Part shown: in pieces, positions 2,301 to 59,414 of the stretch | How positions within the stretch are numbered: the first letter of the stretch is position 1 | How the letters are laid out: each line of letters starts with the position of its first letter | Source of the DNA: Kiritimatiellia bacterium | GTDB lineage: Bacteria; Verrucomicrobiota; Kiritimatiellia; JAQICX01 | NCBI GenBank assembly: GCA_027858345.1 | Contig: JAQICX010000182.1 | Coordinates: forward strand, 273 to 64,272 | Direction of reading: 5' to 3' | Length of the DNA stretch: 64,000 nucleotides | The notes under the pieces: generated by a model | What the model saw: only the letters and a program-made list of their open reading frames with translations | Database searches by the model: none | Told to the model about the DNA's origin: nothing | Translations under genes and position numbers: made by a program

Positions 2301-3266
2301 CTAGCTGTTTTTATTAAGCGAATACTCTATTTTTTTTACTCTAAAAAGAGTTTCATCCTGTGCTACTCTAATTCTATCAAGCATATCGGCAACCATACCA
2401 ATAAAGAATAGAGAAAATGCACCAATCAAAAATAGTAAACCAGTAACTCCAGACCACTTGTGAGGAGTGAACATACCTGTAGTTACCTTAACAAACATTA
2501 GAAAACTAAAAAATCCTACTGCTAATACAAATGATATAAAAGATAGTATACCAAAGAATTTTAAAGGTTTATAATCTCGGTATGTCTTCAATATTATTGT
2601 TGCAGCTCTCCAACCATAGTTGAATAGGTTTGATGCAACGCGTGACTTACCGTGTTCACGAACCCCACGAATTTTCACAGGAACTTCTTCAATTCGAAGT
2701 CTATTAAAAGCCAGTGTTAAAAAAGTTTCATGCGTATAAGTGAAGTCTCCTAACAGCAGCAGTCTTAAATATGCATCGCGCGAGTAAGCTCTAAAACCAC
2801 AGGACACATCAAAAAATTTCTTTTTAATCATAGAACTGAGCCAGTGAGCAATCATATCGTTACCAAAGCGTTTTGCTTTCGGCATGACCGGAGCCAATTC
2901 ATTGTCCATAAATCTGGATGCAGTAACAAAGTCTGCATTTCCGTCTATGATGGGTGCAATGACTTTTGAGATGTCATTTGGATCAAACTGACCATCTGCA
3001 TCAATTGTCACAATAATATCCGCATTTAGTTTACTGGACTCTGACACCCCTGTTCTAAATGCAAAACCAACACCTTTGCAAGTTTCATGTGAAACAACAA
3101 TAGCACCAGCTTCTCTAGCCAACTCAGCAGTTCTATCTGTAGAACCATCATCGACAACCAAAACCTGTACTTCTGTAATACCCGCAAAATCCTTTGGAAT
3201 TCTACTTATAACATCTGCAATTGTAATCTCTTCATTAAGAGCAGGGATCTGAACAACCAACTTCAT
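2301..3266 (-). CDS. Glycosyltransferase family 2 (Dpm1/ArnC-like polyprenyl-phosphate sugar transferase) with C-terminal TM helices
   Basis: 321 aa ORF; N-terminal GT-A signature (VVQIPALNEE..., VLVVDDGSTDRT, DADGQ) and two C-terminal hydrophobic helices typical of ArnC/DPM1-like enzymes. Confidence 0.85.
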   Translation of the reverse strand: MKLVVQIPALNEEITIADVISRIPKDFAGITEVQVLVVDDGSTDRTAELAREAGAIVVSHETCKGVGFAFRTGVSESSKLNADIIVTIDADGQFDPNDISKVIAPIIDGNADFVTASRFMDNELAPVMPKAKRFGNDMIAHWLSSMIKKKFFDVSCGFRAYSRDAYLRLLLLGDFTYTHETFLTLAFNRLRIEEVPVKIRGVREHGKSRVASNLFNYGWRAATIILKTYRDYKPLKFFGILSFISFVLAVGFFSFLMFVKVTTGMFTPHKWSGVTGLLFLIGAFSLFFIGMVADMLDRIRVAQDETLFRVKKIEYSLNKNS

Positions 3267-3273
3267 TCTATAT

Positions 3274-3636
3274 TTATTCCTCTAACCATTCCCAAGCTTC
3301 ATCAAGTTCATCTGCATCAAAACACTTGATTTCAAATGTTAAAAACATCGAGAACATCTTTACTCCCGCAGTCACATATGCCGGACCTCCAACAAGAGCA
3401 ATTTTTTCAAAGGATTTACAATGCTTAAAGCCGAACTTTGCATCATCAACAATAGCTTGTGTTTCCCAGCCTTTAAACTCATCATCCATATAAAGCAAGG
3501 CAGAAACTTTACCATATTCACTAATAAGCTTATCTAATGCAGGCACCCAGATTTCTTCATAATCTTTTGCCGTTAACTTTCCAGATGCCTCAACACCTAG
3601 AACACTATCATGACTTTTTTCTAATATATTAATCAT
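3274..3636 (-). CDS. SpoIIAA-like / STAS-fold small protein (DUF3478-type)
   Basis: 120 aa; pattern ...SGKLTAKDYEE...KFGFKHCKSFEKIALVGGPAYV...AWEWL resembles PF11964 family; recognised by memory only. Confidence 0.45.
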   Translation of the reverse strand: MINILEKSHDSVLGVEASGKLTAKDYEEIWVPALDKLISEYGKVSALLYMDDEFKGWETQAIVDDAKFGFKHCKSFEKIALVGGPAYVTAGVKMFSMFLTFEIKCFDADELDEAWEWLEE

Positions 3637-3800
3637 TTTACTAACCTTTCTTTTTATAATCCAACACTTTTAACAAGGATTTTCACATTAAAACCTTGTA
3701 AGATATGCCACAAATCAGCTAAACACTTTTAAACAATAATATTAAAACACAAACAAATCAAGCAAAAGAACAGAAAAATAGTTATATATTTGTCAACAAC

Positions 3801-4676
3801 TTAAAACAGCAATAATTCTGGTTGCTTTAACTCTTTCACAAACCCATGAAATTCATATGTTTCATAGAACTGAACTAACTCATTAAAACCAGGATGCCTT
3901 ATTTTAAAATCAGAAGCAGAAATCTCACCAATATCAACTAAATAATCTAAGCTGACAAGTTTTATATTTCTGCTTATAATTTCCTCAGCGCTCTGGATTT
4001 TCTCTTGCAATTTTGGGTTTTCAATCTTTGCCAAGCAATCTTCAAAAGGTTCAAGACTGCCCACATCATTAAGAACTTTTGTTGCTGTTTTGTGTCCAAC
4101 ACCTTGAACACCTGCAATGTTATCTGCATTATCTCCAATTAATGCAAGCCAGTCCACAACCTGCTCTGGATAAACCCCCGTCTTGTCTTTAACCTCTTGA
4201 GCCCCCATCTTTATTGGAAGACCTGCAACAGAAACCATTTTGATGTTATCAGATATCATCTGCATCATATCTTTATCACCCGTGGCAACCAAAATTTCAT
4301 CGTACTCGTTCTTTAAACGTTTTCCAAGGGTTGCAATCACATCATCAGCTTCCTGCATATCAATTTTCATAGTGCATATATTTGAAACTTTTAGAAATTC
4401 ATTAAGTGGTTCAAACTGCGCTCTTAACTCATCAGGCATTGGAGGTCTTTGGGCTTTATACTCAGGTAAAAGCTCCATTCTTTTCTTCGGTAGGCCACCA
4501 TCAAACACAACAATTAAGTCACTTGGTTGCCAATCCTTAATAGAACGGTTTAGCATCTTAATAAAACCATATAAAGCATTCGTAGCTAAACCATCGCTCC
4601 GCTTTATATTTTTAATTGCATAAAACGCTCTATAAAAATATGCCATTCCATCTATGATTAAAAGTTTTCCTGCCAT
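3801..4676 (-). CDS. 5'-3' exonuclease (FEN family, Pol I N-terminal-domain homolog; ExoIX/YpcP-like stand-alone flap endonuclease)
   Basis: 291 aa; LLIIDGMAYFYRAFYA...TNALYGF...DLIVVFDGG...GDKDMMQ...IPGV.GVG.KTA motifs of 5'-3' exonuclease domain; no polymerase domain follows. Confidence 0.8.
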   Translation of the reverse strand: MAGKLLIIDGMAYFYRAFYAIKNIKRSDGLATNALYGFIKMLNRSIKDWQPSDLIVVFDGGLPKKRMELLPEYKAQRPPMPDELRAQFEPLNEFLKVSNICTMKIDMQEADDVIATLGKRLKNEYDEILVATGDKDMMQMISDNIKMVSVAGLPIKMGAQEVKDKTGVYPEQVVDWLALIGDNADNIAGVQGVGHKTATKVLNDVGSLEPFEDCLAKIENPKLQEKIQSAEEIISRNIKLVSLDYLVDIGEISASDFKIRHPGFNELVQFYETYEFHGFVKELKQPELLLF

Positions 4677-4754: not shown

Positions 4755-7520
4755 TTATTGATTAGCCTGATCTGCTTCTTCCTGAAGCTTATCAGCAATC
4801 AAATCTGCACTTGAATCTTCAACTGGACGACCAGCTGGGTCAACAAGTCTTGCTGTAACAAAAATCAACAAGTTACGTTTTTCACTTTGGCTTGTTTTGC
4901 TCTGAAAGAATTTTCCAATAATAGGTATATCACCTAAAAGAGGAATCTTATCAATTGTGTCAACACGCTTTTCTGTAATCATACCACCCATTACAACAGT
5001 TGCACCATTATAAATTGAAATACTTGTCTGAACTAGTCTTGTGTGGAAGAAAGGTTGCTCCATATTAAGCTGTTGGACATTTCCTTCCTGATCTGTATAT
5101 GTAGTACCATAGTTTTTCCAATCAGGCTCTGTAACAACTTCTGGAGTCATATTTAGAGTAATCATTTGACCTTCAGGACTAACGTCTGGTTGAACAGTAA
5201 GAATCACACCAACTTCACGCATTTGAAAATCCTGAGGTTCAACGATACCACCAATGATAACCGCAGTATCATTAATAGCAGTCTGCCCTGTAACAGGAGT
5301 AACCGTATATGCAGTTGGATAAATATATTCTGTGACAACTTTAATTGTTGCTTCTTGACCTGTCTGAGTTGTAACCTTTGGAGATGACAGCAAATCAGCA
5401 TGACCTTTTTGCTCCAATGCATGAATAACAAGTCCAAGTTCCGGGTTTGTAAGAATACCAGCAATTGAAAGAACAGAGTCAGCAACGTTTGCAGCATCTG
5501 CAGTAACAACGTCAGACATAAATCTGTTACCAGTTGTAAAACCACCTGATGCACTATTAGCAGCAATATCTACTCTTGGCGCAGCTCCTGGAGCATAATT
5601 GCCATTCTTTGATGCAAGAGTGAAGTCATCATTAAGGAACCATTCAAATCCTAGAGAGTTCATATCCTTTTCATTTACTTCAACAAAACGAGCTTCAATT
5701 TCAATCTGGTTAGGGACAACATTTAGTTCATTAAGAATTCCTTCAAAATCTATTAAGTTATCTTCTGTGTTTGCAACAACAATTTTACCAATTGATCTGA
5801 TGTATTGAATTTGAGAACCAACAGGCCATTTAACTCCCATCTTCGTGAAAAACTCTTTCCAAGGAACAGCAGTTGCCTCCGTACCACCTGCATCACCAAA
5901 ACCAAAACCATCCCCAACTCCACCTGCATTCATTGACAACTCATTGCCAACTGATGGAATTTTATCTTCAACAGATGGTAGAACATCATATGTCTTAACA
6001 ATAATCTTGCCATCAGGAGCATCCGCTGGAACAATCATAACAACAGAACCATCAATTCTGTATTTCAATTTAGAAATTTCTGTAACAATATTTAAAGCCT
6101 CTAGCAATGATATGTATCTTGAACTAAATGTAATAGATTGTTGACCACTTGAATCTGCAACCGCTGTGGTTGGAATTGAGAACGGATCTGGCTCACTTGT
6201 CGTTGCAACAGGCTCGGCATCAGCACCAAGATTAAGAATTATATTTACACCTTTTTCTTCTTGAGGAGAATCTGATGTGTCATAGTCAATAGATGCTCGT
6301 TGTAAAAAGTCAATAACATCAACAATATTTGCCTGACGGAAATTTAACTCAGGTATAATAATGCTTTTCATTTTTTCTGCAATACGAACCTTTTTGTCGT
6401 CTGATATTAATATAGGCTTAGTATTCCGCATTTTATCGGTAGCGCCCTTGTTTACAGCAACATAGCTATCAGGACTCCATTTGTCTCTAACTTCAGCCAT
6501 CATATTAGCACGAGTTGCTTCTGCTTCTTTTGTATTAATTGTGTACTTGTTTCTACCACAAGTTTCTAATAATTTGATTGCATCACGATTATATGGTTCA
6601 AGAGCTAAAACACCCTCAAGCATTAGAACTGCTTCATCGTAATTACCAACAGCCATATACTGTTTTGCTTTCACAAGAAATAGATTTACATCTGTTTGAA
6701 GATCTTTGTAACTATTCTTCTGCCATTCAAGATTTGAATCTTTTTGTTCGACAACAGGAGGTGATTCTTGATACTCAACACATTTTTTTACAAGAGCAGG
6801 AGCTTTGCGGTAACCATACTGAGCTGATTCACGAGCATTGTTTTCTGCAATCTGATAATCACCCTGCTCCATAAGAATAAGTGCTCTCGCATAATATGTT
6901 TCGCCAAGCCTATTTGGAATCTGGTCTTTATAAACTCTAGCTTCTGTACTATTGTTCAAATATTTATTAGCTTCTTTATAAAGACGAATTGCTTGTGCAT
7001 ATCTTTCATTCTTATATGACTCTTCGGCTTCTTTAAAAGTTTTGATACCAAATAATGTTTCAGCCTCTTTTTTGTTGATTTCAAGCTGAATCATTGTGTT
7101 GATATCTGTTTCATCATTTGCAACAGTTGATACAACAGGCTTAACAGGCTCAGCTGTTACATCTGTAGCAAGATCACCAAAGCTGTTCATTGCTGCTAAC
7201 TCCTCTTCAGGTTCAACAGCAACTTCATCAGCAGTGGTTTCCGGCATGGTTTCTGCTTCATCAATATCCATTGTGACTTCTGGTTCGTCAAGATCAAGAA
7301 GATCGCTCACATCAGAAGAGCCGCCGGATCCAGGACTGTTAACTGTGACATCAACACTTGCATTCGTATCCGCTTTGTTCTCAACAGCAACAGGGCTGAC
7401 AGGTTCATCAAGCAACAAGTCTTCATCAAGCAAGAACTCATCATCTTGTGCAACAAGACCTTGAAAAGTTAATGCCGAACATACAACAGCTGTCAACATA
7501 AATATATTTTTCTTTGTCAT
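4755..7520 (-). CDS. Secretin (GspD/PilQ family outer-membrane channel) with signal peptide, long acidic N-terminal region and TPR-like segment
   Basis: 921 aa; signal peptide MTKKNIFMLTAVVCSALTFQGLVAQ; C-terminal secretin signature ...KIPLLGDIPIIGKFFQSKTSQSEKRNLLIFVTARLV. Confidence 0.8.
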   Translation of the reverse strand: MTKKNIFMLTAVVCSALTFQGLVAQDDEFLLDEDLLLDEPVSPVAVENKADTNASVDVTVNSPGSGGSSDVSDLLDLDEPEVTMDIDEAETMPETTADEVAVEPEEELAAMNSFGDLATDVTAEPVKPVVSTVANDETDINTMIQLEINKKEAETLFGIKTFKEAEESYKNERYAQAIRLYKEANKYLNNSTEARVYKDQIPNRLGETYYARALILMEQGDYQIAENNARESAQYGYRKAPALVKKCVEYQESPPVVEQKDSNLEWQKNSYKDLQTDVNLFLVKAKQYMAVGNYDEAVLMLEGVLALEPYNRDAIKLLETCGRNKYTINTKEAEATRANMMAEVRDKWSPDSYVAVNKGATDKMRNTKPILISDDKKVRIAEKMKSIIIPELNFRQANIVDVIDFLQRASIDYDTSDSPQEEKGVNIILNLGADAEPVATTSEPDPFSIPTTAVADSSGQQSITFSSRYISLLEALNIVTEISKLKYRIDGSVVMIVPADAPDGKIIVKTYDVLPSVEDKIPSVGNELSMNAGGVGDGFGFGDAGGTEATAVPWKEFFTKMGVKWPVGSQIQYIRSIGKIVVANTEDNLIDFEGILNELNVVPNQIEIEARFVEVNEKDMNSLGFEWFLNDDFTLASKNGNYAPGAAPRVDIAANSASGGFTTGNRFMSDVVTADAANVADSVLSIAGILTNPELGLVIHALEQKGHADLLSSPKVTTQTGQEATIKVVTEYIYPTAYTVTPVTGQTAINDTAVIIGGIVEPQDFQMREVGVILTVQPDVSPEGQMITLNMTPEVVTEPDWKNYGTTYTDQEGNVQQLNMEQPFFHTRLVQTSISIYNGATVVMGGMITEKRVDTIDKIPLLGDIPIIGKFFQSKTSQSEKRNLLIFVTARLVDPAGRPVEDSSADLIADKLQEEADQANQ

Positions 7521-7686
7521 AAAGATATAATCTCCATTTCTTCATTCTTTATTAAATGGGCAATGTTTCAAATCAAAACAAAATAACCCTATAACCTGTC
7601 ATTACAACAGGTGTTCAATCATAACTAACTGTTTATTATCAAGGACTTACAAATATTCCAAGATAAAAATCCTCTAAAAACTCTAT

Positions 7687-8703
7687 TTATTTCCCTTCAA
7701 AAACAAGGACTTCATCGTCATCAATGCGCTTTATTACTATATTTTGACCCGAGTTGTCAACATGAATAAACTGATATGGCTTATTTTTTAGCTTAAATGT
7801 ATCACCAGCACGTAATTTGAATTCTTCACCTGTGATGTTAAACTTAAGGGTTACAGTGTATTCTTTATACGCAGTACCTTTACCTTCGATAAGATCAATT
7901 TTTTTCCCGGAAGGAGATATCAAACGCAAAACATCTTTATCTCGCTCTCCCTCATTCTGAGCTTTTGCAGCACCTTTTCCAAAATTTGACAGTGTGAACC
8001 CTTCAACCTTTTCCCCGAGTTTCTTAAAATGAGTTCTATCACCATTCTTTAGATTTATCTGGAACATTCTAGATTTATCTGGTAGCAACGATGAACCTTT
8101 AAACAATAGATTAAATGGGTCAGCAACCACTGAAACAACTTTCAATTCTGTGTCTGGTGGTGGATAACTATTTGGATCCGATAGACTCGTATTTGACTTA
8201 AACTCAACAATGTTTGAGAATCCATCACCATCTGCATCAGCCATTGAATCATCAAGACGATGGTTTAAACCATGCTCTTTTTCATACATATCAGGTATTC
8301 CATCCTTGTCTCCATCATATTTTTCGTCAAGTGATCTAAGTGGTGGCTGTACTGTTTGACAAAAAGGACATTTCTTTGCAAAGTATGCTATTGGTATTTT
8401 GCAGTCAATACAAACAACTCTTGACTCTGGAACAAACATAGCAACATTTGTCCAACCTGGATCAGCTAAATTTAACTGATACGGATTTGTAATCTCTGCT
8501 ATTGTGTCCTCGTACTGAGAAACATCTAAAACAGATGCATTAGGGTTAGCCTTGGTGTAAGAAACAATCTCGTTTTCAACTTCAGCCATATCTTTAACAC
8601 CCTGCCCAACATTTATATATAGGTAGGCAGCTGTTGCCAACAAAGCAATAACCACCAATATTAAAATAATTTTATCATAAGAACTTTTTATCATAGAAAT
8701 CAT
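7687..8703 (-). CDS. Membrane-anchored hypothetical protein with CxxC...CxxC zinc ribbon and thrombospondin-type-3-like Ca-binding repeats (DGDKDGIPD, DADGDGFSN); pilus/secretion-cluster associated
   Basis: 338 aa; N-terminal TM helix; CIDCKIPIAYFAKKCPFC; acidic D-x-D-G-D repeats; sits between secretin and PilMN genes. Confidence 0.6.
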   Translation of the reverse strand: MISMIKSSYDKIILILVVIALLATAAYLYINVGQGVKDMAEVENEIVSYTKANPNASVLDVSQYEDTIAEITNPYQLNLADPGWTNVAMFVPESRVVCIDCKIPIAYFAKKCPFCQTVQPPLRSLDEKYDGDKDGIPDMYEKEHGLNHRLDDSMADADGDGFSNIVEFKSNTSLSDPNSYPPPDTELKVVSVVADPFNLLFKGSSLLPDKSRMFQINLKNGDRTHFKKLGEKVEGFTLSNFGKGAAKAQNEGERDKDVLRLISPSGKKIDLIEGKGTAYKEYTVTLKFNITGEEFKLRAGDTFKLKNKPYQFIHVDNSGQNIVIKRIDDDEVLVFEGK

Positions 8704-24949: not shown

Positions 24950-26314
24950 TCAATGCTCTAGAATTTTTCCTGTGGATGCATTGAGGTTTTCTATTGCAAG
25001 AATTCTAGACAATCGTTCTCTTGCCAAAGCTGACTCTGCTGCAACAGCGTCTGTTTGCACTTGATTCAACCGAGTCACAGAAACAAGACTGGCGTTATAC
25101 TCTTCCGTGACAACATTCTCTATCTCATCTGCCAACCTATATATTTCATCACTCTTCTGCAACGACAAATTCTGAATTTCAAGATTATCACTTGCTACTC
25201 TGACATCTGCAACAACATCAATCTGAGTTTTTCTGTACAAATCAGAAGCAGCTGAAGCATCTGCTTTTGTTGCTCGAACTTTCCCGTGTCTCATACCACC
25301 ATCAAAAAGATCCCATGATGCCACCACACCAACAAATGCTTCTGTATTTTCATCTTTGTTTAGGGCGTCAGTATCATCAACACCATTATATCCATAACGA
25401 CCTGTTGCAACTACAGTAGGCATATAACTACCTTTTTCTGCAGATACAGCTGCTTCAGCTTGATCCAATTCAAGCTCTTTCTGCAAAAGATCAGGACGAT
25501 GATCCACCGCATATAATATTTCTTTATCAAAATCCACTAAAAATTCTTTATACTCCTGCTCAAGATTTGAAACTGATTGAACATCGTTTGTAACAGTTCC
25601 ATCGTCAACCCCCATGAGTCTAGCCAAAGCAATTCTGGCTTGACGTTTAGACAATTCTGCAGCCAGTGCCTGGTTTTCAGAAGCAATTTTACGCATTTTA
25701 AAATTCATCACATCAGATCTTGATGCGGCACCTGCAAGATTTCTATCGCGAGTTTCTTTATAAAGCACCTCGTTCAACTTTGCAGTTTCAATTGCAATTC
25801 TCTGTTGTTCTCCGGCAAACAATACAGCCAAGTATGCTTGAGAAACTCCTTGAAGAAGAAGTCGCTGTGCATCAAGAGTAGAGTTTTCGCTTATTTCTTC
25901 TCCATATTTCGCAGCCATTATCCTATATTTACGGGATAAGCCATCAAATAGCAGCCATGAAACATCGACTCCTGCCTTATAATTGTCGTGAGAGCCTAAA
26001 GCTCCTTGGGAGCCGGGCACTTCTTCCATTCTGTAGGCTGAGCCATAGGCACTAACGGTAGGTAACCAAGCAGATTTTGCCTGTTGAGCAATCGCAGATG
26101 CAGCCTCAATACGTGTCATTGCTGCTTGCAGTCCAGGATTTCCGGACAAGGCAATTTCTTTTGCCTGTTTCAGTGTGAGAAGTCCATTAACAACCTCCCC
26201 TTTTTCTACAAAACTATCAGGTATACTTGCTGAGTCTTGAGCCGAAAGATTACTCACTGTCATAGGCAATGACAACCCAATTAAAATTATTATTATAGAT
26301 ATTTTATCTTTCAT
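24950..26314 (-). CDS. Outer-membrane efflux factor (TolC/OprM family) with its own signal peptide, currently in frame with the upstream RND gene
   Basis: C-terminal 454 aa of the 1476-aa ORF; begins MKDKISIIIILIGLSLPMTVSNLSAQ (signal peptide) and shows OMF coiled-coil/barrel repeats (…LFDGLSRKYRIMAAKY…, …LFDGGMRHGKVRATKADASAASDLY…). Confidence 0.75.
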   Translation of the reverse strand: MKDKISIIIILIGLSLPMTVSNLSAQDSASIPDSFVEKGEVVNGLLTLKQAKEIALSGNPGLQAAMTRIEAASAIAQQAKSAWLPTVSAYGSAYRMEEVPGSQGALGSHDNYKAGVDVSWLLFDGLSRKYRIMAAKYGEEISENSTLDAQRLLLQGVSQAYLAVLFAGEQQRIAIETAKLNEVLYKETRDRNLAGAASRSDVMNFKMRKIASENQALAAELSKRQARIALARLMGVDDGTVTNDVQSVSNLEQEYKEFLVDFDKEILYAVDHRPDLLQKELELDQAEAAVSAEKGSYMPTVVATGRYGYNGVDDTDALNKDENTEAFVGVVASWDLFDGGMRHGKVRATKADASAASDLYRKTQIDVVADVRVASDNLEIQNLSLQKSDEIYRLADEIENVVTEEYNASLVSVTRLNQVQTDAVAAESALARERLSRILAIENLNASTGKILEH

Positions 26315-29300
26315 AATTTTCTTTTTTCCTCTTCGTGTTCCAAAATCATAAAGTATAGGGACAACAAACAGTGTCAATATACCCGAAATCAAAATGCCAC
26401 CAGCGGAAGCAATACCAACACCATTTCTGGCTTCAGCGCCTATTCCTTGAGCCAAGCCCATTGGCAGCATGCCAAAGAAACCGGCAAATGTAATCATAAT
26501 AATTGGTCTCATCTGATCTCCAGCAGCAGTAATCATTGCTTTATGTACAGGCATTCCTTCTCTAAGATGTACATTGAGTTGTTCCATAATCAAAATTGCA
26601 TTGTTCACCACAATCCCAATAAGCATAACTATGCCCATAATCACAAACACAGATATACTCTCATTCATCAATAATAACGCCCAGAACACACCAATCAATC
26701 CAAGTGGAAGTGTAACTAAAATTAATGCTGGTTGTTTCCACGACTCCATAATCGCAGCCAGTGTCAAAATAACCAAAATGATAGCTAACAAACCTGCTTC
26801 ACCAAGACTTGCCTGGCTCTCTGCCATGTTTTCTGCATCGCCAGAAAAAATAATTTCATACCCAGGTGGTAAAAGCTGCTCTTTGTCAACATATGAAGCA
26901 ATAACCCCAATAGCTATTCCAAGAGGAAAATCAGGATTCAAATTACTTGTTAATTTTGTGACTCGCCTTTTGTCTCTACGAAGAATCTGCACAGGAGTGT
27001 TGACTTCCTCAAAATTCACAAACGATTCAACCGAAACTGGTTTGCCAGGAAGTCCCGGAACAGAGAATGATTTAACTTGATCTTTGCCTTGTATTTCTTC
27101 ATATTTAACAACAATATCATAATTTCTGTCACCTTGTTTAAATGTGCCAATCTCAATACCTTCAAGATTACCTCTCAATGACATTCCAAATGTAGTTGCA
27201 GAAATACCAAGATCACTGAAAATTGCTCTCTTAGGAAACATTTTGAGCTTATTCTTGCCCAGACGTACTGATGTGTCAACGTCGCTAAAGCCTGGATAAT
27301 TTTCACAATACTGCTTAATATTTAAAGATAAAGCATTAAGAACATCCAACTCATCACCAACAATATAAGCCTCAACAGGTGTGCTGATGCCTCCAATTAA
27401 CGATGGGATAAACGCCCCGGTTAAACAATCGGTTATACCCGTCAATCTGTTTCGAACAATCTCAAGCAAATCATAAATAGTTGCATCTCGTTCATCCCTT
27501 TCCAAAAATTTCAATTGAACTTGCCCAAGATATACACCTTCCGATGCCTGACCGGCAATACCTTGAATTTTGCCAACAGTCACTAGACTACTTGTAAGTC
27601 CTGGCAAATCATCAAACAGTTTTGCAATTTCCAGAACACGTCCAACGCTGTTGTCCAATGAATATGAGGTAGGAAACTCTAAACGAACTGTAATTGAACC
27701 CTTATCCAGATCAGGAAAGAAACTGCCACCAACAGCCTTTGCCGACTTCAAGGCAGACATAAACATTAAAACTACCGCAATAATAAAAAGTATTGCAAAA
27801 ATCTTTCTTTTTTCAAACAAACGCAATAGTTTTCTATATGCGCTGATAACCTTGTCAAGTCCGGCATTGAACTTGTTTTCAAAAAATGCAAGAACACCCT
27901 TGTTTTTTCGACTTGTTAAAAGCTTTGCACATAACATTGGTGTTAATGTGAAAGATATAAAGAGTGATACAAGAGTCATAATAAGCATTGTCAAAACCAA
28001 TGGTTTAAGAAACATTGCAACCATACCGCCCATCATAGCAATAGGAAGAAGCACAACACAATTTGTTCCAGCTGACGCTAAAACAGGAAGCCAGGAATCT
28101 GAGGCTCCAAGTCTCGCTGCCTCTTTTGGATCTTTACCCTGCGAAATGTGCTTGCTTATTGCCTCCATAACCACAATGGAATTGGTTACAAGAATACCCA
28201 CACTCATACCAATTGATATCAATGTTGACATATTCAATGTATAATTCATTAGCCCCATAAAGAAAAGACCAATAACAATCGTAAGTGGCATTGTTATACA
28301 TACAACAAACGTTGTTCTAATATTATAAAGAAACAAAAATAGAATCAATCCCGTGAGCACAACACCCATTGCAACATTTTCCCAAGCACTATCTACAGAT
28401 GCCTTGATAAACTTTCCCTCATCATTAACCCACTTAAGATCCATTCCTCCTGGTAATTGCTCCTTCAATTTTGAAAACTCTGACCGAACAGAATCAACAA
28501 CTTCAACAGCATTTGCATCCGCAAGCTTAACAATTTCAATTGCTATGCAAGATGCACCATCGAGAAAAGCCTTTTGCCTAATCTCTTCAGTTGTCATGAC
28601 AGCCTTGCCAACATCTTTCAAATATACCCGCTTACCATCAACATTTGCAACTTCCAGTTCATTAAAGTCTACAACTTCCAAAGGGTCAGCATCAAATTCA
28701 ACAGTATATTCAAAACCATTATCTTTGACTCTACCTGATGGAATCAAACCAATTGCTGAATTAATATTTTGAGCTACTATTCCAGAGGTCAGCCCTCTTG
28801 CAGCAAGTTTATCTCTATCTATAAGAATATGAACTTCACGCTTAGCACCACCAATCAGCGTACACTCTGCAACACCTGCAATGGACGACAACCGGTCTTT
28901 TAAAGTATTATCAGCATAATCATACAGATCGGCAATGGGCAAATCACCAGTCAATGCAAGCTTCACAACAGGAACGGCATTAACATCAAATTTTTCCACG
29001 ATAGGATCTTCAACCCCTGCAGGGAAATCACCAGCAATTAAACCAATTTTTTCTCGCACATCCATCGCTGCAATATCAATATCTGTACCATATTCAAACT
29101 CAAGAAACGTAAAGCACACATTTTCCATAGCTGTTGACTCAACATGTTTAATGCCATTGAGAGTCATCACTTTATCTTCAATTCTCTTTGCAACATCAGT
29201 CTCTATCTGTTCAGGACTTGCTCCGGGAAAAATTGTTTTAATCGTAATGATCGGTGCATCGATACTCGGAAGCATCTCCAAACCCATCTTACGATAAGTA

Positions 29301-29380
29301 TTGAACCCTAGTAAAACCAGGGCAATCAACAAACAAGACATCGCAATAGGACGCCTAATTGACGCATTTGATAAAAACAT
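26315..29380 (-). CDS. RND multidrug efflux transporter (AcrB/HAE1 family); lacks a stop codon and reads through an A6 tract into the OMF gene
   Basis: N-terminal 1022 aa of the 1476-aa ORF; 12-TM RND architecture, MFLSNASIRRPIAMSCLLIALVLLGF..., ends ...FGTRRGKKKI then MKDK. Confidence 0.85.
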
Positions 29381-41272: not shown

Positions 41273-41505
41273 ATGATAAATATGAAAAATAATTTTTTAA
41301 AGGCGGGGTCATCAGTCTTCGCCCAGCTATTAACAATATAATAAATCTTGTTAGTAGCTGGGCTACGCCAGACGCAGCGTACTTTGAAGGTAAACCCTAC
41401 AAAATACTTGCAAATCAAGGATTTAGCTTTGGTTGCAGCATCCGTAACTGTAGGGTCGGGGTCCGTGACCCCGCCAAAAAGGGTGTTCAACCGAAAAATC
41501 AAGGA
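41273..41505 (+). ncRNA. Copy 1 of a paired ~200-bp structured repeat (candidate small RNA gene or MITE) with TGATAAAT promoter-like box, nested hairpins and 10-bp terminal inverted repeat GGCGGGGTCA / TGACCCCGCC
   Basis: First 102 nt (41301-41402) identical to 59161-59262; 3' hairpin GGGGTC-cgt-GACCCC vs GGGGTG-ctt-CACCCC in copy 2 (compensatory). Overlapping ORFs 41239..41502(-) and 41348..41536(+) are judged spurious. Confidence 0.45.
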
Positions 41506-43293: not shown

Positions 43294-43618
43294 TAAGTCA
43301 GCAGGTTAAGATTAAGGTTAAGGTTAAGGGCTGAATACCTCCCCGGCGGAATTATAGAAAAATTGAAAAAACAGGAATATTCTTCATGTAACACGGAGAA
43401 AATAGGCAGGGAATTGCAAAATCAGTTTTGCGGGTTTAAGTCCTTGGTCGAAAGTCTTTAGTCTTTCTTTTTGGTTGCGAAGGCAACCCGCGAGTTTTGG
43501 TCATTTTTGTCCTTTAGGTCGTTTTATACATTCACCGACCTCTGAGGATATCAGCTAAAACTAGGAAACGGCAGAGGACTGATTGCACTTCCACACCTGT
43601 CTTGTCGCGCCGGAGTGA

Positions 43619-43787
43619 CACGGCTACAGAGTGAACTTTGTAAATTGACGGTTAAACTGTAGTTTCACTCTGTAGCCGACCTCAGCAGAGGTCGGGAACA
43701 CGGTTGAATCGAGGAATTAACGCTTAGCAACTTTTAGTCGAGAGTCCTGAGTCGTGAGTCAAATTGACATATAACATAACAGTTATG
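43619..43787. repeat. ~165-bp composite hairpin repeat (family 1 long form): 15-bp perfect inverted repeat CGGCTACAGAGTGAA/TTCACTCTGTAGCCG, CCGACCTC-agca-GAGGTCGG hairpin, GGGAA, then GAATTAACGCTTAGCAACTTTTAGTCGAGAGTCCTGAGTCGTGAGTCAAATTGACATATAACATA
   Basis: About 88% identical to 50808-50957. Confidence 0.8.
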
Positions 43788-43835
43788 AAAAAACATTAAA
43801 CTTGTGGAATAACCAAAAAAATAAAGGAAAACAAG

Positions 43836-44225
43836 ATGTCAAACGTTGCAGACAGATTACATAATGACAGATTAGTCGAACTACTAGGAATTGAAATACT
43901 TGATGAAAACGAACAATTTCCATCATGCCAGCTCAAAGTATGCAAGAAACACCTCAACGGTGTAGACTACACACAGGGTGGTGCAATTTTCACACTTGCG
44001 GACTACGCATTCGCAATTGCATCCAACACAGACCAACGCCTATCCCTCGGCATAAGCACAACAATGAATTTCTTCAAAGCAACCAAAGAAGGCGATATCC
44101 TCTACACAAAAACTCGCGAACTAAGCCGCACAAAAAAACTTTCAATCTACGAAGTTGAGATATACTGCGAAGATGCACTTATAGCAACCTTCACAGGCAC
44201 CGCATATAAAGTCGCCGATTGCTAG
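43836..44225 (+). CDS. PaaI/YbgC-type hotdog-fold thioesterase
   Basis: 129 aa; …GGAIFTLADYAFAIASN… hotdog thioesterase signature. Confidence 0.8.
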   Translation: MSNVADRLHNDRLVELLGIEILDENEQFPSCQLKVCKKHLNGVDYTQGGAIFTLADYAFAIASNTDQRLSLGISTTMNFFKATKEGDILYTKTRELSRTKKLSIYEVEIYCEDALIATFTGTAYKVADC

Positions 44226-44685
44226 AGAAGGGTAACGTAACGATCTTTCCCGCCTTACGGGACTAGCAGAGCCAGCACGCAAGTGTGAAGGTTTTCATTT
44301 GGTTTGCAACAAGATCCATCATCTTAGCTTATTTTTAATACGACCACAATGTGGAAATCCACCCTTTTCCGTACAGGTTAAACGTCCGCAGGGTAAGAGG
44401 CTTTAGTTTATCTAAAGCAACAGAGCATAGCGAAGTGACAATTTGGCAGTTCTATACCATTTTTATTTGGTCGACAACAGGTAGTCCTTTTACTTTCAAA
44501 AAGTGTAAAACTATCACAGGACAAGACGAGTTCTGCGTCCTAGTTTGTCATTGGCGTAATTGTACTGCGACATGGTTGCATTGTCAAATTGATTTTTGAC
44601 TTCTGTGACTAAATCTCGGTTTGGCTCGTAACTTCTCGTTACTTCAAAGTTGTTCGGGGCAGCTTCACTCCTTTTTCCCACTTTC

Positions 44686-44710
44686 CCTTTTAAGTTTTAA
44701 CTTTCATCAC
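44686..44710 (+). repeat. Left copy of 23-25-bp direct repeat CCTTT(T/G)AAGTTTTAACTTTCATC bounding the DUF2442/DUF4160 cassette
   Basis: Matches 45888-45910 at 22/23; partner motif GAGTTCTGCGTCC.A.TTTGTCATT at 44530 and 44720. Confidence 0.7.
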
Positions 44711-44775
44711 GTCTATCCGTTGAGTTCTGCGTCCGATTTTGTCATTTATTGGGCTTAAACACAAGAGACATCCAT

Positions 44776-45015
44776 TTATGTACACAAATCATATAGTGTT
44801 TCTGGAGCAATATCAAAGCCACATGACCAACAAAGAGTAGGCCATGAATCTAAAGAAAAATTTGCAAATTCATTTAATTCTCGAAGAGATTTTGCATCAT
44901 CATACTTAAAGATTATATCCTGCAAATTTACTTCACCTGATTTACCTGTGTTAAATTTTATAAAAACCTTGTAGTTATAAATATAATAAGCATCTTCAAT
45001 ATATACACATTCCAT
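44776..45015 (-). CDS. DUF2442-family small protein
   Basis: 79 aa; C-terminal …WPTLCWSCGFDIAPETLYDL resembles DUF2442 …DI.PE.LY. Confidence 0.6.
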   Translation of the reverse strand: MECVYIEDAYYIYNYKVFIKFNTGKSGEVNLQDIIFKYDDAKSLRELNEFANFSLDSWPTLCWSCGFDIAPETLYDLCT

Positions 45016-45053
45016 GATTTTATTCTCCTTATTTACAAAACTAGCAAATAGTT

Positions 45054-45320
45054 TTAAACAGAAGCGAAAGTCTTTTTATTATTTTTAATGGAAATACTCT
45101 TCTTATACAAATACTCAGGGTCTAAATCCAGTTCATTCGCCCACTCAATTGTGTCAAAAGAAATTTTGACTGACTTAAAGAGTTTTTCATCTCGCAATTC
45201 AGAAAATCGCCCAAAATTCAACAAAGGACTCACATCAAACTCTCTTTGCTCTGAGTTCTGAAAAGTTAGTATAAGTTTATAGTCCTCTGTTGGAACTACT
45301 GATATAACGCTTAAATACAT
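45054..45320 (-). CDS. DUF2442-family small protein
   Basis: 88 aa; …ISFDTIEWANELDLDPEYLY… DUF2442 signature. Confidence 0.7.
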   Translation of the reverse strand: MYLSVISVVPTEDYKLILTFQNSEQREFDVSPLLNFGRFSELRDEKLFKSVKISFDTIEWANELDLDPEYLYKKSISIKNNKKTFASV

Positions 45321-45329
45321 AAATACTCC

Positions 45330-45596
45330 CTAAATTAATGGTGCAATTTTATATGGATTTTCTCCACTCATTGCAAGCACCCAATCTGCCTGCAACTCTT
45401 CAATATGTAACTCTGCCCAAGCCTTAATAAGTCTAGTTTGTTTCTTCGGCAAATTTCCATCTAACACTTCTAATGTTTTTATACTAAAAGACGCCTTATA
45501 CTCATTGTAATAAGCATGAAAATGAGGTGGATTATGCTCCCCTGGAGCAAAATACATTCTAATTATAATTCCATAAAACATTGATATCGACGGCAT
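45330..45596 (-). CDS. DUF4160-family small protein (partner of DUF2442)
   Basis: 88 aa; MPSISMFYGIIIRMYFAPGEHNPPHFHAYY hallmark of DUF4160. Confidence 0.75.
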   Translation of the reverse strand: MPSISMFYGIIIRMYFAPGEHNPPHFHAYYNEYKASFSIKTLEVLDGNLPKKQTRLIKAWAELHIEELQADWVLAMSGENPYKIAPLI

Positions 45597-45887
45597 ATAA
45601 CAAACTCCCTATTAATTTATATGCCTTTACTATAAAACAAAACATATAATTTGTCAACAAATTCAGACAATTCTAATCAATTAATTTCTATATAGTCTCG
45701 AGGCTAGACTGCTTAACAGTGGTGTTTCATCGATTACGTTCAACACAGTTCCCTATGTACGCTTACTCTATATTGTTCAATATATAATCTCCGCTATAGA
45801 GCCAACGCTCGGTATGAGCTGATGGCGAATCTTTACTCAGAAAGCATGAAACAATGAGCTTCGCTCTACCTGTATTTTTAACTTTTA

Positions 45888-45910
45888 CCTTTGAAGTTTT
45901 AACTTTCATC
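45888..45910 (+). repeat. Right copy of the direct repeat bounding the DUF2442/DUF4160 cassette
   Basis: cctttgaagttttaactttcatc; see 44686-44710. Confidence 0.7.
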
Positions 45911-45954
45911 TACGGCTTTCCTTGACGCACCCGCTTTTATTTGGCAAACAACAA

Positions 45955-46248
45955 TTATTTTTTATTTTGAGATTTGTGTCCATTTTTCCAACATATAACG
46001 GAAACAATAATTAAATTTATACATACCGACCCCCAAGCATGTATCAATAAAATGTAATGTGGCAAAGTCTGAGTATCAGATTCTATCGGTATTATACTCC
46101 ATGGCATCCCCAGCCCTATCAATATAAGCCATACTCCCGGCAAATTGCCTATAGTAATGATAATTACTATTGACACTCCCACCAAAACATAAAAGATTAA
46201 TTCAAATATATTACAAAAACGAATGTGGTTATTTTTCATTCGCAACAA
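45955..46248 (-). CDS. Small hydrophobic membrane protein, hypothetical
   Basis: 97 aa with three hydrophobic helices; AT-rich context. Confidence 0.45.
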   Translation of the reverse strand: MLRMKNNHIRFCNIFELIFYVLVGVSIVIIITIGNLPGVWLILIGLGMPWSIIPIESDTQTLPHYILLIHAWGSVCINLIIVSVICWKNGHKSQNKK

Positions 46249-46432
46249 CTCTCCTCACATAATAAGACTGCACCCTCATATTCAATTCTCGGTTTTCTTT
46301 CCATGTTTAGAATCATTACACATTATACTCACACACATCATCACTAATGCTAAAACAATAGGACCGATACCTTTTGGATACCTTTCTTTTTTGCCCCTGA
46401 CGTATGATTTTGGTCTAATATGCGTTGGATGC

Positions 46433-47203
46433 CTACTGTAAATACCACACACCATTCGTTTTGATAGCGTACATCATGTAGCTCTCGTACCACTCTTCAT
46501 AAGCAGCTTTTAATTTGATCAAGGGAGTCTCATTATCTCTGCAAATTATAGCAATGTGATCATTATACGGACTAATGCTAGAAACAATGTCGCCTTCACA
46601 TTCTGTCCACTCCAAGCGAGATGTAGGACTCATGGCTATGGAATAGAAAAACATCGTACGCTTCTTTTGGACTGCCACAGAGCAGCCCTTCGCTTCTGCG
46701 AGATCTACCACCTGATAGTTGAGATTTGTTGCAAGAACTGGTTCCAAATTGCCATTTTTGAAAGCAGAAATCACCTCAACCACTAGTTGCGTGAGTGTGC
46801 TTTGATCCTCTTGTGTGATATTTGTTATTGAATCTGATTCCTGCCAACTCCATTGATGGTCAAATGTCGGGAGATAGAAATTTGTGAAAACCACAGAAGG
46901 AACACCGTTAGGAAGTATCCATTCACAAACGTTTGTGCTTGTACCATCGGTTGCAATTCTCTCAATACGTCCGGTAACACCTCCCTGTTGCATGATCACA
47001 ACGGAATTTGAGCCTTCAACCAAGTGAGTTGTAACGATCGGTGGCAGGGCATCCCCTTTGTTGAGATACTTGAAGCCGTTGATATAGACAGCTTCTTCAG
47101 CAGAACCTTCCGCATACAGAATATAGTCTTGCCCCGATGCCCCAATGGCACAAAAGATAAGGGATACAATCGTGATGCAAAAAGTCTGTGTAACGCGTTT
47201 CAT
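46433..47203 (-). CDS. Secreted hypothetical protein; start region contains an in-frame tandem duplication of RBS+ATG
   Basis: Likely start MKRVTQTFCITIVSLIFCAIGASGQ at 47203 (GGGAGG SD); ORF track extends to 47368 through two extra in-frame 45-nt repeat units each carrying SD+ATG. Confidence 0.65.
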   Translation of the reverse strand: MKRVTQTFCITIVSLIFCAIGASGQDYILYAEGSAEEAVYINGFKYLNKGDALPPIVTTHLVEGSNSVVIMQQGGVTGRIERIATDGTSTNVCEWILPNGVPSVVFTNFYLPTFDHQWSWQESDSITNITQEDQSTLTQLVVEVISAFKNGNLEPVLATNLNYQVVDLAEAKGCSVAVQKKRTMFFYSIAMSPTSRLEWTECEGDIVSSISPYNDHIAIICRDNETPLIKLKAAYEEWYESYMMYAIKTNGVWYLQ

Positions 47204-47289
47204 GTTTGATATTTCTCCCTGTTCAAAAGTTCTATGTGATAGTTTCATGTTTGATATTCCTCCCTGTACAAAAGTTCTATGTAATGCGT
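47198..47289 (-). repeat. Two tandem 46-bp units (about 93% identical) each containing SD GGGAGG and an in-frame ATG at the 5' end of the 46433 gene
   Basis: 47198-47243 tttcatgtttgatatttctccctgttcaaaagttctatgtgatag vs 47244-47289 tttcatgtttgatattcctccctgtacaaaagttctatgtaatgc. Confidence 0.85.
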
Positions 47290-47394
47290 GTAATGGTTCC
47301 ATGAATTTAGCATCAAACTTCATGGTTTTGCTCCAGGTAATATCTTTTATATACTTGACCCTTGTCAATTAATAATTAACCATTGATAATTATT

Positions 47395-48840
47395 TCAATA
47401 TCCGCTGCCGCCACGCATTGGACCACGACATGCAAGGGGATTGAGAGAACGCAACTTCTTGCTGTCAAAATCTCCTTCACTGGTAATTAGTTTGCCATCA
47501 GCAACAAGATCACTCTTGTTCTTTTCCAGATATTTAATCAAAGCATCTCTAAGCTCAGTCAATTCATTGGTAAATCGAGGATCACTAACAAGATTATTCA
47601 TATCATCAGGGTCTGCCTGAATGTTAAACAGCTGCTCAACACCACCCTCTTTATAAAAAATGTATTTCAGCTCATCCTTATAAACAGCAGCACTACCTGG
47701 AACTTCACCATAAATGTATCTATCATCTGAAACATCGATTGCTGGATTCATCAAAGGAATCAAACTCTGCCCCTCTGCAGTCTCATCTTGCTCAATGCCA
47801 ATCATATCAAACAGTGTTGGGCATATATCCGCAGTCTGAACAGGTGTACCATCCAGAACCGAACGATCAAAACGAGAATCATTGGCTGGTGGACGGAAAA
47901 TCAACGGCACTCGTGCAGCCGACTCCAAAAAGCTATGTTTTGTGAACAAACCATGATCTCCAAGACACTCTCCATGATCAGATGTAAATATAATTGCCGT
48001 ATCTCTATCAACACCATGAGTCTTAAGAGATCCAAACAGACGCCCCAAATGATAGTCAATTTGACTAATCTGACCATAATAGCGTCGACGTGACTCCCTT
48101 ATAATCTCCGGTGTCAAATCGTCCCAATTATAAATCACCTCACGCTTCTGAAACATTGCAGGCAAATCATCATCAACCCAATCACCCTTGACTGGATCCG
48201 ATATTGTAAAGTTATCATACATGCGATCATATGGTGGAGGTGGATCAAAAGGACTGTGTGGTGCCTCAAAAACAAGATAGAGCATAAATGGCATTTCGGG
48301 GTCTCTTTGATCCAAGAACCTAATTGACTCATCAATTGACCAAGTCGTGTGATAATATTTGTCAGGAGTTATTGCCACACCGGGATAAACCTCATTGCCT
48401 CCAAGTCCTTGACCTCTAAAGGCTCCACCATAACCATGGTCTTCCAGCCACCAGATATAATCATCAGGGTGCAATGTCACATGTTCAAAACCATTACGAG
48501 AACGAGATGGTGCAAAATGCATCTTGCCAATAGCTTTTGTCTGATAGCCAGCTTCACGAACTAATCTTGCAGGCAAAGTGCTTTGTCTATCAAAGTCGGG
48601 AGCATTGTTTTCATTAAAATTGTTTATACAACGCATTTGGGAACCTGTCTTTCCCGTTAACATAGTCACTCGCTGAGGCATACATATTGGACAATCTGCA
48701 TAGGCTTGACTAAACAAAATTCCTTCAGATGCCAGTTGATTCAGATGAGGAGTCATAACAGGATGGTTGTTCTTATAGAGTCCGAGACAATCGCCCCGCC
48801 ATTGATCTGCAACAATATAAATTATATTTGGTTTTTTCAT
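47395..48840 (-). CDS. Sulfatase (formylglycine-dependent arylsulfatase family), no signal peptide
   Basis: 481 aa; N-terminal IIYIVADQWRGD and C-x-P-x-R (CMPQR) motif; …FTSDHGE…. Confidence 0.85.
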   Translation of the reverse strand: MKKPNIIYIVADQWRGDCLGLYKNNHPVMTPHLNQLASEGILFSQAYADCPICMPQRVTMLTGKTGSQMRCINNFNENNAPDFDRQSTLPARLVREAGYQTKAIGKMHFAPSRSRNGFEHVTLHPDDYIWWLEDHGYGGAFRGQGLGGNEVYPGVAITPDKYYHTTWSIDESIRFLDQRDPEMPFMLYLVFEAPHSPFDPPPPYDRMYDNFTISDPVKGDWVDDDLPAMFQKREVIYNWDDLTPEIIRESRRRYYGQISQIDYHLGRLFGSLKTHGVDRDTAIIFTSDHGECLGDHGLFTKHSFLESAARVPLIFRPPANDSRFDRSVLDGTPVQTADICPTLFDMIGIEQDETAEGQSLIPLMNPAIDVSDDRYIYGEVPGSAAVYKDELKYIFYKEGGVEQLFNIQADPDDMNNLVSDPRFTNELTELRDALIKYLEKNKSDLVADGKLITSEGDFDSKKLRSLNPLACRGPMRGGSGY

Positions 48841-50807: not shown

Positions 50808-50957
50808 TGTGAACTTTGCAGGTTGACGGTTAAACTGTAGTTTCACCCTGTAGCCGAGTACCGTGGGCTCGGGAAAAAAGTTGAATCAGGGAATTAACGC
50901 TTAGCAACTTTTAGTCGTGAGTCCTGAGTCGTGAGTCACATTGACATATAACATAGG
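50808..50957. repeat. Second copy of the ~150-bp composite hairpin repeat (family 1 long form)
   Basis: About 88% identical to 43631-43787; hairpin stem here CCGAG…CTCGG instead of CCGACCTC…GAGGTCGG. Confidence 0.8.
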
Positions 50958-59133: not shown

Positions 59134-59398
59134 TGATAAATCTGAAATATATGTTTTCAAGGCGGGGTCATCAGTCTTCGCCCAGCTATTAACAATATAA
59201 TAAATCTTGTTAGTAGCTGGGCTACGCCAGACGCAGCGTACTTTGAAGGTAAACCCTACAAACCACCTGCGAAGCAACCTTTTAGCTTTAATTTCAGCAT
59301 CCGTAACTTTCTTGTCACGCCGTAGTCTGGAACAGCGAAGGAGGAAGGGTCGGGGTGCTTCACCCCGCCGAAAAAGGTATTCAACCGAAAAATCAAGG
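59134..59398 (+). ncRNA. Copy 2 of the paired structured repeat (candidate sRNA gene/MITE), with ~35-nt internal insertion relative to copy 1
   Basis: 59161-59262 identical to 41301-41402; conserved upstream TGATAAAT (59134-59141) and downstream GGTATTCAACCGAAAAATCAAGGA; overlapping ORFs 58996..59277(-) and 59207..59428(+) judged spurious. Confidence 0.45.
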
Positions 59399-59414
59399 AA
59401 AGAATCAATTGATG

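Follow-up and report, generated by a model that had tools for sequence, protein, structure and literature searches.

The three small minus-strand genes at positions 44776-45596 of the Kiritimatiellia bacterium DNA analysed here (a stretch of 64,000 nt from a metagenome-assembled genome, NCBI MDA3799666-70, hereafter the window) are, judged from their sequences, a type II toxin-antitoxin (TA) operon of the known DhiT/DhiA family with one extra antitoxin-like gene. We consider it likely that the surrounding locus is what is left of an orphan array of rhs genes (YD-repeat polymorphic toxins), one slot of which this operon occupies. The direct repeats on either side, which an initial annotation of the window read as the boundaries of a horizontally acquired cassette, are by sequence comparison two copies of a spacer or leader element that belongs to the scaffold of the array and predates the cassette. 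Since its TA family is known, the cassette is in itself unremarkable; the context in which it stands is unusual.

The first gene of the operon (45330-45596, minus strand) encodes a DhiT-like toxin of 88 amino acids (aa) with a DUF4160 domain (Pfam PF13711, 86.6 bits against a cutoff of 23). Nine nucleotides downstream on the same strand, in the reverse TA order with the toxin gene first, lies the gene of DhiT's cognate partner, a DhiA-like DUF2442 antitoxin (45054-45320, minus strand; 88 aa; PF10387, 56.8 bits). It is followed by a second DUF2442 gene, DhiA' (44776-45015, minus strand; 79 aa; PF10387, 48.3 bits), and the DUF2442/DUF2442/DUF4160 assignment of the initial annotation is thereby borne out for all three genes. 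The NCBIfam model toxin_DhiT (NF048015) aligns end to end with the first gene at 82.5 bits (equivalog cutoff 100). The antitoxin_DhiA model did not match the second gene and matched the third weakly (30 bits, cutoff 200, model positions 5-70 of 160). Within DhiT, the His-rich motif E20, H21, H25, H27 and Y29 (E-H-x3-H-x-H-x-Y) is invariant in 43 homologues, as are R13, Y15, W60, E62 and E67.

Description of the DUF4160/DUF2442 pair as poorly characterised is outdated, and the TA-like nature suspected in the initial annotation agrees with the experimental validation of the family as DhiT/DhiA (PMC8198452, PMC12724237). In Dickeya dadantii 3937, the two dhiTA genes share a transcript. Growth is inhibited by the DUF4160 protein, which the DUF2442 protein counteracts, and the antitoxin on its own represses the promoter, though less strongly than the complex does (PMC8198452). 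On plasmids of Thermus thermophilus, a DUF4160/DUF2442 pair termed a "persistence-enhancing module" raises plasmid persistence, and a construct without the second open reading frame (ORF), and thus with the toxin only, could not be introduced (PMC12724237). The Menshen NsnC proteins likewise use DUF4160 as an effector domain, for which no structural homologue was found (PMC12065111).

The family is large, with 1666 clusters at E <= 1e-5, and extends over several phyla. The DhiT protein of the window is 100% identical in the comparator loci L007, L011 and others, and relatives at 70-83% identity occur in Chloroflexota, Gemmatimonadota, Victivallales and other groups. We surveyed the canonical unit in 80 metagenomic DUF4160 loci with 53-85% identity to DhiT; 78 of them hold a toxin-first pair with exactly one DUF2442 gene 15-25 nt downstream, and a hidden Markov model search found a second adjacent DUF2442 gene in none of the 80. 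Nor were rhs genes present at the metagenomic DhiT relatives, all of which are at most 85% identical. In L108 and L109, a bare DhiT-DhiA pair stands between cobW and the ATP synthase operon; its toxin is at least 90% identical in protein sequence, and the pair is 88.6% identical in DNA over 45596-45045.

The third gene has a separate history. DhiA and DhiA' share no similarity by BLASTP, and a recent duplication as the source of both DUF2442 genes was rejected for that reason. The closest relatives of DhiA' (90% identical in protein, 92.6% in DNA), in L099 and L100, come second in a two-gene operon of their own, DUF4160 (82 aa) and then DUF2442 (79 aa). Homology between the window and L099 falls into two parts. 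One takes in the promoter together with the toxin gene's 5' end (45659-45489, 78%); the other covers the third gene (45033-44777) and stops at its stop codon. The outer limits of homology are 45659 and 44777 relative to L099, and 45596 and 45045 relative to L108. Another locus, L101, harbors two separate DUF4160-DUF2442 pairs (3740-4252 and 7259-7777), from which it is evident that relatives of the third gene normally have a toxin of their own. The L101 pairs lie among DUF499, DUF3780 and DUF1156 genes in a defence-island-like context; in the window region, PADLOC gave no matches, which leaves assignment to a known defence system unsupported.

The simplest reading of these comparisons is that DhiA' was once the antitoxin in another pair, DhiT'-DhiA', and was orphaned when the toxin of that pair was displaced. 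The ancestor would have been a two-gene DhiT'-DhiA' operon with a truncated rhs fragment directly downstream, the arrangement of L099, and a DhiT-DhiA pair of the L108 type would then have replaced DhiT' through recombination, orphaning DhiA'. An operon in which an antitoxin was orphaned through replacement of its toxin gene bears on TA diversification and on cross-protection between pairs.

The locus also bears signs of a recent exchange. Relative to L007, a block comprising the promoter, DhiT and DhiA (45018-45693, minus strand) differs by 4 mismatches in 676 nt (99.4%), and its flanks are about 91% identical (about 25 mismatches in 305 nt at 44712-45017 and 8 in 26 nt at 45694-45719). DhiT and DhiA are the same proteins as in L007, with 1-3 synonymous changes, and DhiA' differs by 8-9 amino acids. 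Since the mismatch map places a 99.4% block inside flanks of about 91%, a recent exchange of the promoter-DhiT-DhiA block is indicated. Together with the presence of another TA operon in the corresponding slot of L103 (below), this block upholds the horizontal acquisition that had been proposed. The low GC content that had been noted is also real, at 31.7% for the cassette versus 38.0% for the window and 38.4 +/- 1.4% for 13 large ORFs. A further locus, L014 (ENA ERZ27315652), compared with window positions 45045-45328, has a DhiT that is about 98% identical and a DhiA that is only about 87% identical, which suggests that alleles are shuffled even inside the DhiT-DhiA pair.

Upstream of the toxin gene, a sigma-70-like promoter-like site, TTGACA-17-TATAGT (45629-45657, minus strand), agrees with the consensus at 11 of 12 positions and is kept in L007, L011 and L099; homology to L099 begins exactly at its -35 box. 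A perfect 9-bp palindrome read from the sequence, GGCATATAA-N16-TTATATGCC (45592-45625; arms 45592-45600 and 45617-45625), forms part of inverted repeat I4 and extends from just past the -10 box across the 5' untranslated region to the start codon. The palindrome is a candidate operator, a function suggested by the way in which dhiTA regulates itself (PMC8198452).

The direct repeats are best aligned at 44682-44708 and 45884-45910 (27 nt, 25 of 27 identical, with the exact 17-mer AAGTTTTAACTTTCATC in common), essentially the same pair as that first reported at 44686-44710 and 45888-45910. They are not reproduced by chance: 1000 dinucleotide shuffles of 44226-45954 gave no exact repeat longer than 15 nt, and 200 gave no 27-mer match better than 21/27. 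Each repeat is the first (5') half of an A/G-rich spacer element of about 45 nt, roughly ATGAAAGTTAAAACTTAAAAGGGAAAGTGGAAAAATACAGG, of which 8 copies from 5 loci align. The left copy (44671-44711, minus strand) holds the left repeat, and the right copy, ATGAAAGTTAAAACTTCAAAGGTAAAAGTTAAAAATACAGG (45870-45910, minus strand), holds the right one. A degenerate tandem copy had been described beside the left repeat; such a copy exists on the right (45871-45890 versus 45892-45911, 80%), and on the left the adjoining sequence, CCTTTTTCCCACTTTCCC, is the second half of the element.

Homologues of the spacer element are conserved in L096, L097, L098, L103, L104 and L011. The right copy and its surroundings (45944-45854) are 87% identical to L097 4882-4973, directly after an immunity-like gene. 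The left copy and the NDKIGRRTQRID that precedes it (the junction QRID|element) are shared with L098 1946-2020 (84%), L103 3201-3276 (89%) and L104-L107 (88%). In L096 and L098, an element homologue supplies the start (MKTKTKNLEVKN...) of rhs ORFs that are truncated at differing internal points. Two copies lie about 190 nt apart around an rhs stub in L104-L107, with no TA operon between them; the equivalent unit of L103 has a single copy, and the related TA pairs of L099 and L108 have none. In the window itself, the repeats sit outside the shared TA unit, 225 nt upstream of 45659 and 69 nt downstream of 44777. Because the pair in L104-L107 brackets an rhs stub without a TA operon, we regard the repeats as scaffold sequence older than the cassette, and since the sequence in common with related TA loci stops short of them, they are not target-site duplications. 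Genome scans should therefore be read with caution, as direct repeats around a small AT-rich operon may be the scaffold of a decayed array rather than insertion scars.

A related insert is seen within orphan rhs modules that end in a C-terminal (CT) toxin domain. In L098 (1946-2388), L103 (3190-3379) and L104 (3709-3920), an insertion made up of the A/G-rich element and a 23S_rRNA_IVP (PF05635) gene for a four-helix bundle interrupts rhs-CT ORFs and separates ...GRRTQRID from NTFGYNSKSEL.... This gene is intact in L098 and L103 and persists as a remnant in L104-L107.

By its minus-strand translation, the left flank derives from rhs and runs in the order DhiA', stub 1, left repeat, stub 2. Stub 1, (LCLSP)INDKIGRRTQRID (44712-44764, minus strand), overlaps the end of DhiA' and matches residues 1-20 of the L007 RHS ORF (tblastn, 85%); in L007 it runs on as part of an RHS-repeat ORF that is at least 795 aa long. 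Stub 2, ...NNFEVTRSYEPNRDLVTEVKNQFDNATMSQYNYANDKLGRRTRLVL* (44514-44670, minus strand), matches residues 177-221 of P0039 (tblastn, 73%, E 9e-17) and residues 730-780 of P0002, a segment that in intact Rhs proteins stands just upstream of NDxxGRRTQRID. The stubs comprise about 18 and 52 codons, and the RHS proteins that match them carry PF05593 and PF25023. The motif GAGTTCTGCGTCC, pointed out in the initial annotation, indeed occurs twice (44528 and 44722), inside a 25-nt repeat that is 92% identical, and is the antisense of the G-R-R-T codons of both stubs. The 55-aa ORF at 44514-44681 is this rhs stub rather than a gene. No other RHS-like sequence was found in the 64-kb window, and neither a core, a C-terminal toxin nor a recognisable immunity gene; the window therefore holds an rhs relic only.

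More complete versions of the arrangement are present elsewhere. The same cassette occurs in four independent Logan assemblies (L007, L008, L010 and L013), and in the first three it is followed by an RHS ORF starting LCLSPTNDKLGRRTQRIDTMINST...; L013 ends within the third gene. The L007 RHS ORF contains PF05593 and PF25023; annotated homologues of it come from Lentisphaerota, Kiritimatiellia and Verrucomicrobiota. A full-length homologue shows the natural order to be ...FEVT+SYEPNRNL+TEVKNQ...NDxxGRRTQRIDTMINS..., core end and C-terminal toxin. The L007 ORF (957-3341) is permuted relative to it, its first ~100 residues corresponding to homologue positions 772-868 and the remainder to 59-758, and recombination between repeated rhs sequences is therefore implied. 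P0085, P0094, P0096 and P0099 are orphan rhs-CT modules that begin from or near NDxxGRRTQRID and differ in their C-terminal domains, and intact rhs modules are found in the relatives L097, L098, L099, L103 and L104.

Three further sequence elements tie the flanks to these arrays. A degenerate fragment of group II intron domain 1 occupies 45737-45849 on the minus strand (Rfam RF02005, 29.7 bits with a gathering score of 49, E 5e-6), and its homologue in L103 (2266-2402) scores above the gathering threshold (53.3 bits, E 1e-12). GTGCG at 45926-45930 and the domain-1 fragment belong to a conserved spacer that comes after module-terminal genes in rhs arrays; in the window this intron-derived piece is interrupted by the right repeat element. 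Neither domains 5 and 6 (RF00029) nor a reverse transcriptase ORF were found in the window region, L007, L011, L096-L099, L103 or L104; an intact group II intron was thus rejected, as only the domain-1 fragment is present. We set aside a match to the Rfam snoRNA snR66 as a chance hit (24 bits, E about 1). The 48-aa ORF at 45763-45909 covers the spacer element and the intron relic, is not kept as an ORF in relatives and is not considered a gene.

The second of these elements, the X motif (TGTT..GACCAAAT.AAAA), follows the last gene of modules in L096, L097, L098, L103 and L104. Its third copy in the window, TGTTGTTTGCCAAATAAAA (45935-45953, minus strand; repeat family D2), lies directly past the stop codon of a 97-aa ORF. 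The other two copies belong to the tail of the relic (44293-44479, minus strand), which consists of X2 (44461-44479), a palindromic element E1 (44337-44382) and X1 (44293-44311). E1 is 46 nt long with the overlapping palindromes GTGGAtTTCCAC and CCACAtTGTGG, and is always located 40-60 nt past an X motif. Copies in L097 (1729, 5051, 5240 and 5828) are 87-91% identical, L096 has one inverted copy (60-96) against a truncated rhs ORF, and the X-E1 unit also lies downstream of the cassette in L011.

The edges of the relic are, as far as sequence variants can tell, still decaying, with strains that differ by indels on both sides. L002 is without 44432-44670 (stub 2 and X2), and L004 ends exactly at 44431. 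L001 and L005 are without 45946-46001 and otherwise show 2 single-nucleotide polymorphisms (SNPs) over 7 kb. L011 and L012 have no rhs sequence past QRID, which is joined directly to the X-E1 tail.

Between its conserved flanks, the locus has a variable slot (44748-45748, minus strand) that L103 fills with a different operon. The left flank of L103 retains the X motif (81%) and an intron fragment (2277-2377 versus window 45839-45749, 86%), and the right flank retains the stub and element (3201-3276 versus window 44747-44672, 89%). Between them, NTP_transf_2 and HepT genes (an MNT-HepT operon) take the place of DhiT-DhiA-DhiA'. More broadly, TA-type genes lie directly 5' of orphan rhs fragments in five of the six modules examined in the lineage: DhiTA in the window/L007 and in L099, HEPN-MNT in L097, and ParE and MNT-HepT in L103. 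L104 has no TA gene 5' of its rhs fragment, and L098 has the IVP gene there instead. TA genes are missing from L110 and L111, two more distant rhs loci, and extension of the TA-rhs association to distant rhs loci was rejected on that basis.

In the most likely account of how the operon works, the sigma-70-like promoter (45657-45629) would drive the three minus-strand genes; by analogy with Dickeya and Thermus, DhiT (DUF4160) would act as a growth-inhibiting toxin that DhiA (DUF2442) binds and neutralises, and DhiA together with DhiT would probably repress the promoter through the palindrome over the 5' untranslated region and start codon. DhiA' would be an additional antitoxin-like gene. The role that we propose for the operon is that of an addiction module or stabiliser, possibly also of a promoter donor, for a recombination-prone array that appears to have lost nearly all rhs coding sequence by deletions still polymorphic in the population. 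The scaffold of the array runs X motif, group II intron relic, A/G element, rhs stub ...NDKxGRRTQRID and A/G element. In the literature searched, we found no description of TA operons interleaved with rhs orphan arrays. We put forward only tentatively, and as a rather doubtful proposal, that in the Kiritimatiellia lineage a conserved slot at the 5' edge of orphan rhs modules, flanked by the group II intron relic and by the stub ...NDxxGRRTQRID with its A/G-rich element, captures and exchanges unrelated TA operons, which supply a promoter for otherwise silent rhs-CT/immunity cassettes and lock them in. If this is true, intracellular TA addiction modules would be coupled to an inter-bacterial polymorphic-toxin array in a way not described before. 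If general, the use of different TA families in one rhs slot would link addiction modules to the maintenance or expression of such arrays.

The reading favored by the initial annotation, a discrete mobile three-gene cassette whose 23-27-nt repeats are a target-site duplication or att sites, has in its favor that the repeats are statistically real and bracket the genes, that the operon is AT-rich, and that the family is spread over phyla at 70-83% identity. We nevertheless judge it very unlikely. The repeats neither delimit the cassette nor were made by it: they stand 225 nt and 69 nt away from the conserved TA unit, occur beside unrelated genes, are paired without a TA operon in L104-L107, and occur as one copy only at the equivalent unit of L103. 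The annotation had itself held that repeats beside unrelated genes would tell against a repeat-bounded insertion, and that is where the element is found in related rhs arrays. Moreover, the repeat is too long and imperfect for a typical target-site duplication. No recombinase, transposase or integrase domain was detected among the neighbours (thioesterase, TPK, PanD, sulfatase, TrpA, SNF and BacA), and no terminal inverted repeats or attC-like imperfect palindromes occur at the boundaries within 43500-47500, so an integron or insertion-sequence origin was rejected. The two neighbours between which an insertion had been placed, paaI and the sulfatase, are both present, and the intervening DNA is better described as an rhs-array relic that contains the operon. 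A somewhat less improbable, though still unlikely, explanation is that the A/G elements and X motifs are cis sites of a dedicated exchange process (integron-like or related to retrohoming) that moves TA operons and rhs-CT modules. Different TA operons in one slot between conserved flanks, spacers that remain 81-94% conserved between arrays of differing gene content, the intron relic with its GTGCG 5' end directly past the X motif, and the inverted X-E1 unit of L096 would all fit such a process. However, no integrase, reverse transcriptase or intact intron was present at any locus read, homology breakpoints do not coincide with element edges, and ordinary homologous recombination between conserved spacers accounts for the data.

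Two other explanations concern the genes and the assembly. The small genes occupy the usual position of immunity genes between rhs modules, and could in principle be rhs accessory or immunity genes, for example immunity to a lost Rhs C-terminal toxin, rather than an autonomous TA system. This is highly improbable given that L108 has DhiT-DhiA by itself, with cobW on one side and the ATP synthase operon on the other, that the pair recurs in 78 of 80 unrelated contexts without rhs and in the defence-island-like setting of L101, that more distant rhs loci are without such genes, and that self-contained toxin/antitoxin behaviour has been shown in two species (PMC8198452, PMC12724237). Likewise, contigs L002, L004 and L006 end inside the region, and the near-identical 676-nt block could mis-join strains, as would be expected if the mosaic and its repeats were a metagenome assembly artefact of collapsed or chimeric contigs from mixed strains. 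Yet the window arrangement recurs in other samples, in L001/L005 (2 SNPs and one indel) and in L009 (99.9%), the L007-type junction comes from four independent runs, and both repeat copies lie within single contigs; an artefact is thus extremely unlikely.

Several points weigh against our own interpretation of the locus as an rhs-array remnant with a DhiT/DhiA operon. With a score below the NCBI equivalog cutoff, DhiT is a family relative and not an equivalog. The DUF2442 proteins of the window, at 79-88 aa, span the N-terminal ~70 of the 160 positions of the Dickeya DhiA model, and the DNA-binding and autoregulation step may differ for that reason. The order of the spacer parts is not the same in the window and L104, so the history of rearrangement reconstructed here is partial. 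The comparators are all short metagenomic contigs that often break in the region (L002, L004 and L006); some may be chimeric assemblies, and L007 and L103 may not be orthologous to the window locus. A scan of genome contigs with the thioesterase for an empty site yielded only an Anaerolineae match at 38% identity and no close relative.

Beyond the relic, the window contains a PaaI-like hotdog thioesterase gene (43836-44225, plus strand) and a sulfatase gene (47395-48840, minus strand). The family-1/2 repeats reported in the flanks are present as REP-like (repetitive extragenic palindromic) families at 43631-43778 / 50809-50955, 44245-44293 / 50684 / 50776 and 41292-41505 / 59151-59399. These are 87-158 nt long and 89-92% identical, contain GC-rich hairpins and lie beside housekeeping genes across the window; the rhs spacer elements are not related to them. 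An ORF of 1476 aa (24950-29380, minus strand) joins an AcrB-type transporter of the resistance-nodulation-division family (aa 4-1011, 702 bits) to OEP/TolC-like repeats from aa 1070, and this fusion of inner-membrane pump and outer-membrane channel looks unusual. A 45-nt tandem duplication (47197-47285, 93% identical) lies just upstream of the probable start (MKRVTQTF..., signal-peptide-like) of a 311-aa ORF (46433-47368, minus strand), for which no Pfam, NCBIfam or PADLOC match was obtained. Finally, L099 40-85 (minus strand) matches the Acido-Lenti-1 RNA at 33.9 bits, just under the gathering score of 37, which is consistent with an origin of L099 in the Planctomycetes-Verrucomicrobia-Chlamydiae group.

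In comparison with known systems, the operon resembles DhiT/DhiA of Dickeya and the Thermus module in its domain pair, toxin-first order, small genes and single upstream promoter. It differs in its third gene, a very divergent second DUF2442 seen in none of the 80 related loci, in antitoxins of 79-88 aa relative to the 160 positions of the DhiA model, and in being embedded in an rhs array relic. The spacer is similar to bacterial group II intron fragments in its GTGCG start and domain-1 fragment; relative to group II introns it keeps about 170 nt, with about 120 model positions deleted and with neither domains 5 and 6 nor a reverse transcriptase. Chromosomal integron arrays also feature small, AT-rich, promoter-proximal TA operons, inter-cassette repeats and a slot with different cassettes, whereas the window has no integrase, attC-type palindrome or R'/R'' core sites of the kind that accompany attC-separated TA cassettes, and its repeats do not mark exchange breakpoints. 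Features are also shared with rhs orphan toxin/immunity arrays such as those of Salmonella and E. coli, in which a main rhs gene is accompanied by orphan rhs-CT/immunity modules: 5'-truncated fragments that start in a conserved region shortly before the variable C-terminal part, tandem recurrence with conserved junctions (relatives of the window have an rhs-CT and a small downstream gene), and rearrangement through repeated rhs sequence, as in the permuted L007 ORF. Relative to those arrays, the window retains two stubs only, without a core, CT toxin or recognisable immunity gene, and its lineage is set apart by canonical TA operons (DhiTA, MNT-HepT, HEPN-MNT and ParE) immediately 5' of the fragments.

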